A stretch of DNA of 64,000 nucleotides, from the NCBI GenBank assembly GCA_036785375.1, contig JAWMAR010000048.1, forward strand, positions 10,044,001-10,108,000. The letters are read 5' to 3'. How positions within the stretch are numbered: position 1 is the first letter of the stretch; the number at the start of each line of letters is the position of its first letter. The notes below the pieces were generated by a model. The model made no database searches, had not been told where the DNA came from, and saw only the letters and a list, made by a program, of their open reading frames with translations. This DNA comes from Leucoraja ocellata. Lineage: Eukaryota. The position numbers were made by a program, and so were the translations under genes. Shown piece by piece: positions 25,089-48,080 of the stretch.

Positions 25089-25666
25089 GTCATAGAGTCG
25101 TAGAGTGATAGTGTGGAAACAGGCCCTGTGGCCCAAGTTGCCCACACCGAACAACATGCCCCAGCTACACTAGTCTCACCTGCCTGTGCTTGGTCCATAT
25201 CCCTCCAAACCTGCCCTATCCATGTACCTGTCTAACTGTTTCTTAAATGTTGGGATAGTCCCTGCCTCAACTGCCTCCTCTGGCAGCTTGTTCCATAAAC
25301 CCATCACACTTTGTGTGAAAAAGTTACCCCTCAGATTTCTATTAAATCTTTTCCCCTTCACATTGAACCTGTGTCCTCTGGTCCTCGATTCTGCTATTCT
25401 AGGCAAGAGGCACTGTGCATCTACCCGATCTATTCCTCTCATGATTTTATACACCTCTATCAGATCATCCCATCCTCCTGCGCTCCAAGGAATAGAGACC
25501 CAGCCTACTCAATCTCTCCCTATAGCTCCCTCTAGTCCTGGCAACATCCTCGTAAATTAAGCTTGACAATATATTTTCTATAACATGGTGCCCAGAACTG
25601 AACACAATATTCCAAATGTAGTCTCACCAACGTCTCATACAACTTATATATTCTTCTGATGATTAT

Positions 25667-25972
25667 TTTAGTTTAGAGATACAGCGCGGAAACAAGCCCT
25701 TTGGCCCACTGGGACCACGCCGACCAGCGATCCCTGCACTTTAACACTATCCAACACACACTAGGGACAATGTTTACATTTACTAAGCCAATTAACCTAC
25801 AAACCTACATGTCTTTGGAGTGTGGGAGGAAACCGAAGATCTCGGAGAAAACGCACGCAGGTCACGGGGAGAACGTGCAAACTCCGTACAGACAGCACCC
25901 GTAGTCGGGATTGAAGCCGGGTCTCTGGTGCTGCATTCGCAGTAAGGCAACAACTATACCGCTGCGCCACCG
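25667..25972 (-). mobile_element. tRNA-derived SINE, full length
   Basis: Same family; head CCGCTGCGCCACCGT on the plus strand. Confidence 0.88.
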
Positions 25973-26596
25973 TAAGACTTGACGATGATGGTCTTGTATG
26001 CTACAATTTCCATTTATATGTACCTAAACTTCCACCCTTTCAGTGTTTAAAAATAATTTACAGCAAGTCGTGTTCATCCAAGTATTCTGGTTAGAAGAGC
26101 CCATAATTCTCTGTCATTAGCAACGCATTTTGTGATTAAATTGGTGACGACTGAGTTTTGTGCTTTGCACACTGTGTGTTTAATAACAATATGCATCAAG
26201 GATTATGCCATGCAATGTTCTTATTTTATATAGTTTACCCTTTAAAGTTGAGCAATAGCACAAATGATGCACAAGTGATTTATAGCTGCAAGAACATGAA
26301 CATGAATCACAATAACTCCAGCGGATAGTCCTGGCCAAGTGTCCCAGAATTAAAGATGAGACTGAGAGAATTACTTCAATAATTTCATGTTGTTCTTTAT
26401 TGTTGTGTTGTACTTATATTGTATTAAAATGTCCTTCGAGAATGCCAAGTCGTCTTTATCACATGTTAGTTGAGACATTTTGGGATATGCTAATTTTACT
26501 GTTAGTAAAGAGTTGGTTTATAAAGTATCCCTTTCAATGGATTTTAAAGAGCAGGTACATTAGATTAAATGTGTGTGTTTACTCCTGGTTTTGCAG

Positions 26597-26699
26597 TATT
26601 CTACGATGATGACTTGACAGATGCATTCTTTCAGACAATCTACAGAGTTCTGAGCCATTTGAGAAATCCAAGCACTGTATATCTCTCTGTGGAGAAAAG
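26597..26699 (+). CDS. METTL22: METTL22 coding exon 8
   Basis: TTGCAG| acceptor; VFYDDDLTDAFFQTIYRVLSHLRNPSTVYLSVEKR, completing the D-x-x-Y motif across the junction; donor AAG|GTAAGC, phase 2. Confidence 0.95.
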
Positions 26700-28221
26700 G
26701 TAAGCACGGGAAAGACATGGACAACCAGTGATGGTATGGATTGTAAAACCTACATTTTTAGGATTGGAGTGTGTAATAGCCATCAGGTTATTAAACACGG
26801 CAACAAACAAGTTCTGAACTCCAACAGACTATTATTATTATTGCACGATAAAGTGTTTGCTTTTTGAGTATGTGTGTATGTGTATATATACACACACACT
26901 GAACTTGTTTACCTCTCGTTTACTATGTTTACATATTCTGTTGTGCTGCAGCAAGCAAGAATTTCATTGTCCTATCTGGGACACGTGACAAAACTCTCTT
27001 GACTCTTGACATCTTGGAAGGAAATTTTCGAAAGTCCAAGTTCAAGTTACATTTATTGTCACATGCACCAGTCGGTACAGTGAGATTTCAGTTACCATAC
27101 AGCCATACGAATAAAAAAAAAGCACACACTACACGATAGAGTTGAACATAAACACCCCCACACAACGTTTCCCACTGTGAGTTCAGTCATCTTCCTCTTT
27201 GTTCACCCGTGGTCGGGGCCTTTGAGCCCTCTGCAGTCGCCGCTGCCGAAGGCCCTCTCGCTGGGATGAGGGAACTCCAACATCCGATGGAATTGCATCA
27301 GAAACCAATATATAATGCTATTTATTTATTGCTGCTGGTCATAAAAAGTTACCACATCAAGGCAGAGACTGGTTTGATGCTGAGAGTAGTTTATTTGTGA
27401 ATACCACAGTATCCAGTAACCAAGGCGACCATTTAACATCCTTTAACTGACTGGACAGTTTTAAAGCTGCCACTCGCTGATCTGCATCAGCCGGAGCTAG
27501 ATACTATAACTCCAACAGAAGGTAGTTAAGGCCAGTTCATTGGTTATATTTAAGAGGGAGTTAGATGTGGCCCTTGTGGCTAAAGGGATCAGGGGGTATG
27601 GAGAGAAGGCAGGTACAGGATACCGAGTTGGATGATCAGCCATGATCATATTGAATGTCGGTGCAGGCTCGAAGGGCCGAATGGCCTACTCCTGCACCTA
27701 ATTTCTATGTTTCTATGTTTACACTAAGGCTTAGATGTGATGCCAGACCCACTGCAATGTGATTGATTCGTAACCATCCGCAAAAAATTACTCGACTAAT
27801 CTCTCCACTCATGGGGAAATTGAAGATAGGTAATAAATCGGGTTGGAAAGGGTCCCTTTTTCTCCAGCGATTCTGCCTGACCCGCTGAGTTACTTCAGCA
27901 CTTTGTGTCTATCTTTGGTATTAATCGGCCTTGTTTCTACCTAATAAATGACCTTGCCAAAAACCCAACTATCTCCCATTTTAAAAAGTTGACATCACTT
28001 TTCCTCTTTTCTCTATGTCTTTTTTTCACTTATGTTCCTTTATTTCCACAACTCCTGCGGGACAACGTAAGAAACAATAAGGAGTAAGTGAATCAGCTCT
28101 TCACACCAGCTGTGCCACACAATAAGGCCACGGCTGATCAACCCCTGGTCTCTGGGTGACGTTTCCGGTCGGGACCCTTCTTCAGACTAGTCAGGAAGAT
28201 AGGGAAACGTGAGATATAGAC

Positions 28222-28450
28222 AGTGCAGATGTTGAAAGAACAGAGTCTCCTCAGAAAGTATAGACGGCTCTGTCCCTTCTTATGCAGTGCCTCAGCGTTC
28301 CTGGACCAGTCCAGTTTACTGTCCAGGCAAACTCCAGGGTACTTGTACTCCTTGGTAAACTGCACATCCACACCCTTGATGGAGATGGGACAGGGGTGTT
28401 CCTCTCCTCCTAAAGTCCACCACCAACTCCTCAGTCTTGTCGGTGTTGAG
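28222..28450 (-). mobile_element. Rex1/Babar RT fragment
   Basis: ISIKGVDVQFTKEYKYPGVCLDSKLDWSRNAEALHKKGQSRLYFLRRL. Confidence 0.75.
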
Positions 28451-28802
28451 CTATGAGCTCTAATTCTAGACTCTCCCACAAGTGGAAACATCCTCTCCAC
28501 ATTCACTCTATCCAAGCCTTTCACAATTAAAATATATTTTCTAAATTTGGCACCAGGTGTCATGTTTATAATATTATGTTAAGATAAATAAATGGTCATA
28601 TTCTTACAGTATAGGCAAATGTGTGTCTCGTAATTCAAGAGTGAAATGAACTGGACATTCTCATTGTATTCTCATTCCCATTGTATTCTTATTGTATTCT
28701 CAACATTCTGTCCTATTTTAACTATAATGCATCTTCAAAAATACAGCAGCAGCTGTAATATAGCATCAGGATTTGGTAAAACTGAGGTGTGATTTCTTTC
28801 AG

Positions 28803-28971
28803 ACTGAACTTTATGTTGCGAAAACTGGATGTTACATGCGATGCTTATGATCACTTCCGACTGTGTTTGGATGAGTTGGCAAACATGAGTGACGGGAGAA
28901 CTTCATTTGTTGTGGAGCCAGTCAAACTTGCTTTTCCACAGTTCCTGGTTTATGAGCGAGTGGAACAATTG
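28803..28971 (+). CDS. METTL22: METTL22 coding exon 9
   Basis: TTTCAG| acceptor; LNFMLRKLDVTCDAYDHFRLCLDELANMSDGRTSFVVEPVKLAFPQFLVYERVEQL; donor TTG|GTAAGT. Confidence 0.96.
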
Positions 28972-30514
28972 GTAAGTGATTTTGGGAGTTAGGGTTTTTA
29001 AAGAGTTGGTGAAAGAGTTCGGTTGCATAGACTTGTTTCTCAGACTGTCAAATCTAATTGGAGAACTCTCGGAGCAGAATGATCCGTGAAGAGAAATTAA
29101 AACAAATTATCGTGAGGGATGAAGGAATCTTGCAGAGATAAAGAATAAAGAGGAAAGAAGAAATGACAAGTAATGTTTTAACACAGCTGTGGATATTGAT
29201 AAAGGACAGATCAAACATATTCCAGAAAGTATTTAAACAAAAACAAGCCAAAAGCAAAATACAATGGATGTTGGAAATCTGAAATAATAACAGAAAATAA
29301 TCAGATTAACATTTCAAACATTATCTGCAGAGGCGAAAATAAAAATTTAAATTTTTGACAATTCATAAGAAATATTTTCTCTTTTCCTCTCCACAGTTGC
29401 TACCTAACTTGCTGAGCACTTCCATCTCTGTTCCACCTGTAACACTATACTCTGTACTATTTTTGCATTATCTCTACGTGTACGGTGTGACTGTACTTGT
29501 GCATAGTATGATTTGAAGATAGACACAAAATGCTGGAGTGGTGGGACAGGCAACGTCTCTTGAGAGAAGGAATGGGTGACGTTTCAGGTCGAGTCCCTTC
29601 TTCAGAGTCTTCAGACCAGTCTGAAGAAGGGTCTCAACCCGAAACGTCACCCATTCCTTCTCTCAAGAGATGCTGCCTGTCCCGCTGAGTTACTCCAGCA
29701 TTTTGTGTCTTTCTTTGGTTTAAGCCAGCATCTGCAGTTCCTTCTTACACAAATGGTATGATTAGACTGGATAACAGGCAAACAAAGTCTTTCACTGATC
29801 TTGACCACTTCCTGTCTGCGTTGTAATTAAATTTGCGCAAAAACGACCCCCATAGCGCTACGCTTTTTTGCTACCTTACTCACCATTCTCCTCTGCTGCA
29901 AGTCGAATAGGTTTTGTTTTGATCGGTGAAATAGTGCAAAAGTTATGAAGGTTTTGAAGGTTCCCCCTCCCCCACACCCTCACACCCCCCCTCCCCCACA
30001 CACCCCTCCCCCACCCCCCCTCCCCACATCACACCTCCCCCACACACCCCGAAGGGCCTGTTTCCGCGCTGTATCTCTAAACTATAATAAACTAAACTTT
30101 TCTTCATTTTCCTCTTGTCCAATGGAAACAATTTTAAGTATTAGCAAAATTCTTACGTTTTTTGATTTTTTGATTATCTCTATAATGTAGTTCTGTTTTC
30201 AAAATTGCTGCCCTGAATTGCTGAGTCCGTTTTCCTGTGATGGCAGAATCTCCCTCCTCTCCATGTTGTCCACAGATGTGGCCTGACCCGCTGAATTACT
30301 CCAGCACTCCAGATGTGTCCAGTTGTGAACCCAGTGACTGTGTGAGATGTCCACCATGTCCAATACAACTGATCGATCCCTAGTTAGTTTCAGTGGGAAT
30401 GGAGATAAGCTTCACAGGGAGGGGTTTTTATTTTCTGTAGATGCTGCAGCTAAAGCTAGGAATGATCTAAAACCATTTCCTCCTTTTCTAAGATAGACAC
30501 AAAATGCTGGACGG

Positions 30515-31140
30515 ATATTTTTAGAATAATTTCTGAAGTTGAAACTAATAATATTAGGAGTATCAGAACAAAGCCTAAAACTTACAACAAGCCAAAGAAA
30601 CTTCCTTGATTACAGTAAAATAACTGGGAAAAAATTAATATTAACATTCTGGAAAGGTCCTACAACCCCCACAATTAAAATGTGGATTATGGAAATGTCG
30701 GAGACCTTACATTTGGAAAGAACTAGACTTGTCTTAATTGTCAAACAAGAATTATTTGTTAGAATATGGTCTCCATTTATTGACTTTTTGAAAGGGTAAA
30801 TTGGTCCGGCACGGGAATCTGACTGAAGCTCGAACTCAGGATTAGATGAACAGTTATGTTTTATAATCTACGGACCTATCTCTAAAGTTGTATTATTGGT
30901 AAATCACTCCATTGTTTTTTATCGTGTCTTTGTTTTCTTCCTACTTCCTATCTATAAAAAAAACCCAGATAGAAGCAGAGTTAATATACAATTGATAAAT
31001 GAGAACCGCTATTATTTTGATAGTTGGATTCCCATCTATTAGCAATGTGTGATTGATATACAAGATGTGTTTTGATTATGATATGTACATGCTTCTAATA
31101 AAAAAAAATTTAAAAAATAATAAATAAATAAATAAATAAA
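30515..31140 (+). mobile_element. L1-clade LINE 3' end with A-rich tail
   Basis: KKLILTFWKGPTTPTIKMWIMEMSETLHLER...FVRIWSPFIDFL resembles fish L1 ORF2 C-termini; ends AATAAAAAAAAA...(TAAA)n. Confidence 0.72.
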
Positions 31141-31516
31141 TAGATGCTGGAGTAATTCAGCAGGAGAGGCAGCATCTCTGGAGAGAACCAAACCAGCATC
31201 CGGAGTTCCTTCCGACGCCCTTCTTTCATAACTATCCCAAACGGTGTGGCTTTGTTGCCTGGATAACAACGATAACGACTCATTTACTGGTGTACTACAT
31301 ATGCGTGTGTGTGTGTGTGATGTGGAAGGGCCATGTTTGACATTAGACATTATGGCCGAAGAGGCAAGGGTTGAGGCTCCCTCCACAAGCTAAACTGTGG
31401 CTGCTTGTTGAATAATGATTGCCACCTAGTGGTAGTGTGTTGCCAGTGCTTCCAGATATATGTAGAACAAAGGTTAAGGATTGGTGCCAAGGAAATTGCT
31501 GCCAAGGAAATGTCAC

Positions 31517-31938
31517 ACCAAGCCAGCCGGCTGCCTGCCCCTTTTCAGGGGTTACGTCCGTGCCCGGGTGGTGTTAGAAAAGAACTACATGCTGTCCACG
31601 GGCGCCCTGGGGGATTTCCGGGACCACTGGGCACCGCTGGGGGTTGAATACATCCTTGACAAGGAGTGCAAGATAGTTGTATAATAGTTAGTATACATCA
31701 GTCTGAAGAAGGGTCTCGACCCGAAACGTCACCTATCCCTTTGCTCCATAGATGCTGCCTCACCCGCTGAGTTTCTCCAGCATTTTTGTCTACCTTCTAT
31801 TTTTCCAGCATCTGCAGTTCTTCCTTAAACATTGTATAATAGTTTATCATTTGTCGTGTATTATGGTGGTAGGTTCTGTGTTTTTTTACTATTGTATATA
31901 TTATTTTAATATTTGAACAAATAGTTTTGATTTAAAAA
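31517..31938 (+). mobile_element. Tx1-clade LINE 3' end with 13-bp TSD, containing a nested Penelope end
   Basis: CLPLFRGYVRARVVLEK...FRDHWAPLG; TSD AAGGAAATGTCAC at 31504-31516 and 31939-31951; inner insertion flanked by TTGTATAATAGTT. Confidence 0.72.
31703..31730 (+). ncRNA. Minimal hammerhead ribozyme core in a Penelope-derived end (representative of many copies)
   Basis: CTGAAGA-A-GGGT(CTCG)ACCC-GAAA-CGTC = CUGANGA, stem II, GAAA, palindromic ACGT, UC site. Similar cores at about 5318, 12964, 22302, 29621, 35606, 38949, 41008, 42878, 55330, and on the minus strand. Confidence 0.6.
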
Positions 31939-32052
31939 AAGGAAATGTCACTGTCGACTTGAATCCTATTAATAACTCCTTTGTGTAAAGGTTTTGTTTT
32001 TATTGGTCATTGCCATAGAGAATTGACTTTTTTTTTGTGGATTCCCTTACAG

Positions 32053-32106
32053 GAACTGTGGAAAATAATTGTTGAGCCGCACACAGCAATGAAACGGCTA
32101 TTGTAA
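32053..32106 (+). CDS. METTL22: METTL22 last coding exon
   Basis: TTACAG| acceptor; ELWKIIVEPHTAMKRLL-TAA (human ELWKIIAEPVT). The exons sum to 1152 nt, an intact frame. Confidence 0.93.
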   Translation, partial: ELWKIIVEPHTAMKRLL

Positions 32107-47975: not shown

Positions 47976-48027
47976 GGGGTGGGAGATTGCAACCTTCACG
48001 TGGTCCGCCCTGTATCGACGAATGCAA
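47976..48027 (+). ncRNA. HDV-like self-cleaving ribozyme fold at the 5' end of a short retroelement
   Basis: P1 GGGGTGG(47976-82)/CCGCCCT(48005-11) with G1.U wobble; P2 TTGCA(47987-91)/TGCAA(48023-27); P3 ACC/GGT; L3 TTCACGT; vestigial P4; J4/2 C-GAA with C48019. Confidence 0.72.
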
Positions 48028-48080
48028 ATAGAACAAGTTGTCCTACAACTTTCGGCTGTGCACGCCACGCGCAAGAAGAT
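47976..48080 (+). mobile_element. Short non-autonomous retroelement (Vingi/Ingi-type), ribozyme head plus GCAAGAAG tail
   Basis: Homologous to the minus-strand copy at 24961-25088; tail shared with the LINE fragment ending at about 45651. Confidence 0.65.

Follow-up and report, generated by a model that had tools for sequence, protein, structure and literature searches.

The 64,000-nucleotide (nt) stretch of the Leucoraja ocellata genome analysed here (the window) carries, at 47976 to 48080, a copy of a short non-autonomous element that was built from the 5′ and 3′ ends of a long interspersed nuclear element (LINE), and that very probably spread when a ribozyme predicted in its head cut the RNA before base 1 and the LINE protein then copied that RNA. 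The 54-nt head fits a fold of the hepatitis delta virus (HDV) type, for which the stronger support is the pairing retained across related LINE families.

The predicted ribozyme in the head of the element

A preliminary description of the window had proposed an HDV-like ribozyme at 47976 and had suggested a descriptor search as a check. We wrote an HDV-type descriptor, with a stricter variant adding a rule on loop L3 and helix P2, and ran it on both strands of the 64-kb window. It returned a single match, at 47976, compared to 3 matches in 100 dinucleotide-shuffled windows (0.03 per window) and none in the shuffles under the stricter rule. Descriptor and position check together confirmed that helices P1, P2 and P3, L3 and the joining segment J4/2 all lie where they had been placed. 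With G1 at 47976, P1 joins positions 1-7 to 30-36, including G1.U36 and U5.G32, the 5′ strand of P2 occupies 10-16, and P3 pairs 17-19 with 27-29 around L3 (20-26), which carries U20, C22, C24 and G25. After G37, U38 and bases 39-43, C44 (48019) starts J4/2 (CGAA), and the 3′ strand of P2 runs from 48023. The ribozyme of the family is 54 nt long, with a core of the CPEB3 type and only five bases where a P4 helix would stand, in keeping with the earlier remark that P4 is almost absent; there is no P4 helix, and the five-base loop fits the minimal HDV-like subtype. The features G1-Y and the U and C-G of L3 are described for HDV-like ribozymes (PMC6326823); for CPEB3, U20.G25 is described together with a P1.1 in which U-U accompanies a single G-C (PMC4836649). 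HDV-like ribozymes that lack P4 show activity in vitro, and nearly all reports of them come from phages (PMC10879173).

The catalytic core was then followed through 92 family copies with an intact head, where G1.U36 is retained in 78, U20 in 88 and G25 in 80. The C22-G37 pair, previously put forward as a possible single P1.1 pair, is present in 85 of the 92 and is the only pair of P1.1, accompanied by U21/U38 as in CPEB3. C44, which had been assigned the catalytic position and which opens a 4-nt J4/2 ending in A, is present in 85 copies, and the corresponding C is found also in three outside families. The frequent variants that are not of CpG type, at positions 8 (J1/2), 32 (U5.G or U5-A), 39 (loop) and 45 (J4/2), are all unpaired or neutral for pairing, and the remaining variants are mostly CpG decay. 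A P2 of 5 bp had been described, which is right for the 47976 copy and not for the family, where P2 has 7 bp.

For an outside comparison we took 24 segments upstream of or near the start of the open reading frame (ORF) from 80 metagenome loci encoding proteins related to that of the partner LINE, many of them truncated. A relaxed descriptor was passed by 3 of the 24 segments, and by none of them on the reverse strand. In the resulting table of four Vingi-like families, fitted by hand, P2 and P3 covary: the P2 sequence differs in each of the four and pairs completely every time, three sequences occur at P3, and neither the catalytic C nor the length of J4/2 changes. With our own covariance model a single outside family was recovered (the top 4 of 8 matches, E 6e-4 to 0.43), while loci L299 and L286 were missed. 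At L286:424-560 (+) lies a Vingi-like head with the same plan of P2, P3 and J4/2 and an L3 enlarged by about 60 nt.

The short-element family and its partner LINE

Copy counts refer to the 3.44-Gb genome. A 32-mer of the head had 1,986 exact matches, and its reversed control had none. Scaling from the 3 of 27 tail-selected copies that hold this 32-mer gives about 18,000 copies, and 0.86 Mb of flanking sequence, with three copies met incidentally and three further matches dropped as targeted or as a local duplicate, gives about 12,000; both estimates are rough and include haplotype duplicates, so that the overall figure is roughly 1-2 x 10^4. Collapsing near-identical flanks reduced 127 matches to 104 copies, a non-random sample ranked by similarity or chosen by pattern. 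Target-site duplications were called in 68 of the 104 (51 of them 11-13 bp long) and none in 36. The duplications end exactly before G1 in 36 of the 68 copies and within one base of it in 54, as expected from the earlier proposal that family 5′ ends coincide with G1. An apparent preference for CA before G1 was rejected as an artefact of the query flank (7 of 68 overall). The usual element consists of about 130 nt plus (AAG)n, about 136 in all, and falls into at least three subfamilies; the length of about 105-130 nt given before reflects two deletion variants. Median divergence from the column majority is 6.6% in the 92 copies with an intact head, and the family looks old and decayed. At least half of the family's words were found in 19 of the 23 public runs listed, which come from eight organisms; 9 of the listed runs may be the source of the DNA studied here. 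In another run, 62 contigs break off at G1 into unrelated flanks, and two small RNA-like runs cover the head only and leave the LINE body uncovered, which, these being contig data, is no evidence of its absence. Viral contigs yielded no relative.

The LINE was reached with a pattern anchored in the tail and made to pass over the usual body of the short element, which gave 156 matches; among the loci examined, L148, L158 and L159 had coding sequence upstream of the tail, and a search with the LINE coding piece gave 965 first-look candidates. At their 3′ ends, the 30 LINE loci that were fetched have a Cys/His knuckle, then a stop codon and the last ~40 nt of the short element, where the two are about 80-98% identical. 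LINE heads match positions 1-77 of the short element at 85-94% identity and then run into a frame for an apurinic/apyrimidinic (AP) endonuclease. The short element is composed of the LINE 5′ ~80 nt, a linker of ~13 nt and the LINE 3′ ~40 nt, and it is an internally deleted LINE because its 5′ part matches the LINE head and its 3′ part the LINE tail. Subfamily C and loci L233 and L235 arose from this LINE by further internal deletions, independent of that of the short element. At L213:1431-1615 (-) and L215:1455-1639 (+) we observed a 5′-only LINE piece (positions 1-185) without the 3′ tail and with apparent direct-repeat flanks.

Other routes to the LINE were rejected. Tail-only DNA searches returned short copies only, at 60 of 60 loci, and a search with PF14529 returned at 30 of 30 loci an unrelated LINE of the Nimb/I type without the head. 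This Nimb/I-type LINE (L061-L090) is a young family that has no relation to the short element and in which several frames of 1,100-1,268 amino acids are open. A pattern for subfamily C gave 4 matches and one for a guessed continuation of the LINE gave 1, with no intact LINE among them.

No intact LINE copy was found among the genome loci examined. One copy, L267, is near full length from head to tail and contains stops, a deletion in the reverse transcriptase (RT) and an inserted repeat; the same ~1-kb repeat is inserted in a short copy of subfamily C (L155:3754-4847). LINE fragments jointly cover 1,014 of the 1,019 residues of the homolog P0001, at a median identity of 60%. The 30 homologs are 700-1,031 amino acids long; an RT domain is annotated in them and, in most, an endonuclease domain as well, but ribonuclease H (RNase H) in none. 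Overlapping broken copies and intact homologs together give a LINE with a single ORF that encodes AP endonuclease and RT and no RNase H, and that is therefore Vingi-like, this being the organization described for Vingi LINEs (PMC13708176). An RT tree built from 38 rows places the host pieces with P0001 (99/99), apart from the host Nimb and CR1, in a group that includes L299, whose head resembles the 5′ end printed for Vingi-2_Gav. These sequences lead us to infer that the partner LINE belongs to the Vingi clade.

Ribozyme positions 47-49 (48022-48024; L209:1500-1569 (-)) coincide with the first ATG in frame with the LINE ORF, overlapping the last base of J4/2 and the start of the 3′ strand of P2, and later in-frame ATGs exist. 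Owing to this overlap, translation from the first ATG would need the ribozyme to be unfolded.

Proposed mechanism, rival explanations and the copies in the window

In the mechanism that we propose, RNA polymerase II would transcribe a master copy, directed by signals that lie upstream or within the element, and the head of the transcript would fold and cleave itself before G1 in a Mg-dependent reaction with C44 as catalyst. Transcription may come from host read-through, as the preliminary description had proposed, or from a promoter in the head. The ribozyme would stay on the element RNA after the cut. The LINE protein would recognise the 3′ end of this RNA and copy it into the nicked target by target-primed reverse transcription in trans.

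Several results weigh against this reading. The strict descriptor was passed by only 43 of the 92 copies with an intact 5′ end. The preliminary description had also pointed to the Rfam models and to covariation in P1, P2 and P3 as tests: Rfam gave no HDV or CPEB3 match for the window, L008 or three LINE loci at gathering and E-value thresholds, and no two-sided covariation was detected within the family, where shuffles equal the score (13 distinct rows of well-kept copies). Among the outside families P1 is imperfect in two of three, so that it is perfect in two of the four overall, and the P2 and P3 of the four-family table were read off by fitting the structure by hand. Plain folding z-scores were no better than those of shuffles, as expected for a pseudoknot, the minimum-energy fold recovered P1 and P3 only, and in L008 with its real upstream flank P1 meets competing pairings. 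The run data are contigs and incapable of showing RNA ends, and the assignment to Vingi is indirect, as the tree contained no named Vingi or Ingi protein.

The precise 5′ ends can also be read in another way, since a promoter starting at +1 would yield equally precise ends. In the Pr77 of L1Tc/NARTc a single stretch of 77 nt serves both as promoter and as ribozyme (PMC3383444), and the head of the short element could likewise be mainly an internal promoter, with an inherited ribozyme fold that is slow or dispensable; a P1.1 of one pair and the missing P4 could indeed render the fold fragile. We consider this unlikely. A DNA promoter has no need of the pairing and the catalytic C that are retained over four families with little P2 sequence in common, the subfamily changes avoid breaking pairs, and activity in vitro is known for minimal HDV-like ribozymes that have no P4 (PMC10879173). 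An internal promoter is nevertheless compatible with cleavage, and both can hold.

Inverted junctions were frequent among the LINE fragments. An inverted LINE piece stands at the 5′ break of 8 of 22 independent LINE 3′ fragments, in 7 cases from the first ~180 nt, and an inverted 3′ part abuts 10 of 20 LINE heads (loci with inverted junctions are L176, L178, L191, L192, L194, L195, L196, L210, L216, L218, L219, L222, L225, L226, L229 and L234). The inverted arm often reaches within a few bases of G1, and L312, from another organism, has an inverted head upstream of the 3′ part. The inverted head junctions resemble those of twin priming, here with as much as ~3 kb of template between the arms. 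Inverted pieces of the extreme 5′ end are joined to LINE 3′ fragments much more often than pieces from elsewhere in the element, which suggests that the head stays close to the target while insertion takes place. This would suit a fold kept as a binding site for the LINE protein, or as a protective cap at the RNA 5′ end, and not as an enzyme; in R2, the 5′ ribozyme region is bound by the protein of the element, and the fold there protects the RNA end (PMC6765202). Such a role by itself is nonetheless improbable, given that C44, U20/G25 and G1.U are all retained at catalytic positions and that it leaves the formation of the 5′ end at G1 unexplained.

A degenerate short interspersed element (SINE) of the tRNA type, transcribed by RNA polymerase III and matching the ribozyme by chance, is largely refuted and has a negligible probability: the head does contain a word weakly resembling an A box at position 5 and one weakly resembling a B box at position 38, 33 nt apart, but these, the best in the head, carry 3 and 2 mismatches to the box consensus, ARAGORN found no tRNA gene in 3 loci, the head is the LINE's own 5′ end and the chance rate of the descriptor is at most 0.03 per window. 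The preliminary description had seen a SINE-like family without a tRNA head; the second half of that statement agrees with the ARAGORN result, whereas the family is not free-standing and derives from a Vingi-like LINE of the same genome by internal deletion.

The ribozyme, the two copies of the element in the window and the neighbouring genes are located in Table 1. An identical duplicate of the 47976 copy lies on another contig (L001). As the 32-nt deletion of this copy begins at position 53, its P2 is reduced from 7 bp and keeps 5 bp. With up to 2 mismatches allowed, the genome has the deletion junction at no more than 4 places, two of which are the copy itself and its duplicate, and the 105-nt form was rejected as a subfamily on this ground. 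No clear target-site duplication was found for the 47976 copy, the best flank repeat being 5 nt; it adjoins a microsatellite and stands ~16 kb beyond the last METTL22 coding exon, on the same strand. We regard it as probably a dead-end insertion, whose predicted ribozyme may be weakened by the shortened P2. In the sister copy, whose 5′ boundary had been said to agree with the predicted cut, the 11-bp duplication ends one base before G1, and the 13-nt deletion has removed C44 and J4/2. The claudin/PMP22-family exon at 2973-3290(-) is presumably TMEM114-like, by synteny.

Table 1. Location of the element copies, the parts of the predicted ribozyme and the neighbouring genes in the window.
Feature	Position	Strand	Remark
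Short non-autonomous element copy	47976..48080	+	32-nt internal deletion compared with the family
Predicted ribozyme fold, HDV/CPEB3-type, no P4 helix	47976..48027	+	cleavage predicted 5′ of 47976; sequence from the LINE 5′ end
P1 5′ strand	47976..47982	+	pairs with 48005-48011; G1.U wobble
P2 5′ strand	47985..47991	+	7 bp in the family; here 47987-47991 pair with 48023-48027
P3-L3-P3′	47992..48004	+	U20 (47995), C22 (47997), C24, G25 (48000)
G37, U38 and five-base loop replacing P4	48012..48018	+	G37 forms the single P1.1 pair with C22
J4/2	48019..48022	+	predicted catalytic C at 48019 (C44)
32-nt deletion junction	48027..48028	+	between short repeated motifs
3′ part common with partner LINE	48043..48080	+	last codons, stop, 3′ untranslated region, short AAG tail (48073-48079)
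Sister copy	24961..25087	-	antisense in METTL22 intron; 13-nt deletion breaks the ribozyme
Sister copy target-site duplication, 5′ side	25089..25099	-	
Sister copy target-site duplication, 3′ side	24950..24960	-	
METTL22 coding exons	14181-32103	+	exon tested: best protein match 94%, skate protein
Claudin/PMP22-family exon	2973-3290	-	strand opposite to METTL22

Known two-part elements and the CPEB3 ribozyme

The two-part architecture is known, having been described for NARTc, RIME and the R2 SIDEs (PMC3414825, PMC6765202); what is new is the clade, the vertebrate host, the small predicted ribozyme without P4 and the copy number. In trypanosomes, NARTc (from L1Tc) and RIME (from ingi) are likewise built of LINE 5′ and 3′ ends (PMC4035085), with an HDV-like ribozyme in the first ~77 nt that cuts before +1 and a short common 3′ end (PMC3383444). 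Compared with NARTc, the skate family is hosted by a vertebrate and is shorter (~136 nt against 263 nt), with a predicted ribozyme of 54 nt without P4; its partner LINE, in contrast to those of NARTc and RIME, lacks RNase H, and it numbers about 10^4 copies. The R2 SIDEs and R2/R1 SIDEs of Drosophila also combine a ribozyme head with a LINE 3′ end and are mobilised in trans (PMC3414825), but they are rare and sit at fixed ribosomal DNA sites, whereas the skate family is dispersed, with duplications of 11-13 bp and an AP-endonuclease partner. The minimal HDV-like/theta ribozymes of gut phages equally have no P4 domain and often stand beside tRNAs (PMC10879173), while the skate one heads a vertebrate retrotransposon.

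Vingi derivatives have been described before, and we compared Vingi-1_EE, Vingi-2_Gav and Vingi-1_Acar; Vingi-1_EE is reported to have many internally deleted derivatives (PMC5786205), like the skate LINE. According to the same paper, two-part elements are made only by RTE, Ingi, Vingi and R2, and Vingi is not among the six ribozyme-bearing clades that it lists. The available portion of a review of RNA-based gene insertion with the Vingi clade mentions no Vingi ribozyme (PMC13708176). Our literature search found no report of a Vingi ribozyme, nor of a Vingi or short-element family in sharks or rays; Repbase and Dfam lay outside this search, and an earlier name is possible.

The CPEB3 ribozyme (RF00622) shares with the skate family the L3 consensus, U20, C22, G25, a P1.1 made of a single G-C together with U-U, and a J4/2 of 4 nt (PMC4836649), although it has a P4 hairpin and a single intronic locus, and the P1-P3 sequences of the skate family differ and give no score on its model. 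The Vingi-like LINE head at L299:3588-3671 (+), on the other hand, scored 55.6 bits on the Rfam model of the mammalian CPEB3 ribozyme (threshold 35, E 7e-13). L299 is a full-length LINE with a duplication on both sides and a CAT-repeat tail, and the duplication ends within one base of the predicted cut. By eye, the Vingi-2_Gav 5′ end, as printed in a supplement (PMC5786205), is nearly identical both to the L299 head and to the consensus of the CPEB3 model. On grounds of similarity only, a retrotransposon origin of the mammalian CPEB3 ribozyme is likely, and the score of the L299 head suggests that this ribozyme is a domesticated Vingi head. The literature search, which covered passages of PMC10919898, returned no paper linking the CPEB3 ribozyme with Vingi; one paper matched, through the name "Tvingi".

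Taking these comparisons together, we are slightly inclined to regard the skate family as the ribozyme-headed equivalent of a SINE, about half the size of NARTc, present in ~10^4 copies and carrying a P4-less ribozyme of a type otherwise known nearly only from phages, and to regard the CPEB3 ribozyme, which has been tied to memory, as a domesticated Vingi 5′ end. If this is true, Vingi would join the LINE clades with a 5′ ribozyme, and a vertebrate would hold thousands of self-cleaving RNAs in its genome, many of them within transcripts. The family would offer a natural, predicted HDV-type ribozyme of 54 nt from a eukaryote, and a minimal cis unit (a head of ~80 nt and a tail of ~40 nt) for a clade now used in RNA-based gene insertion, where the frequent capture of inverted heads gives a type of junction worth watching for. 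Since a Vingi-like head matches the CPEB3 model, the question of where the mammalian CPEB3 ribozyme came from can be put to a direct test.
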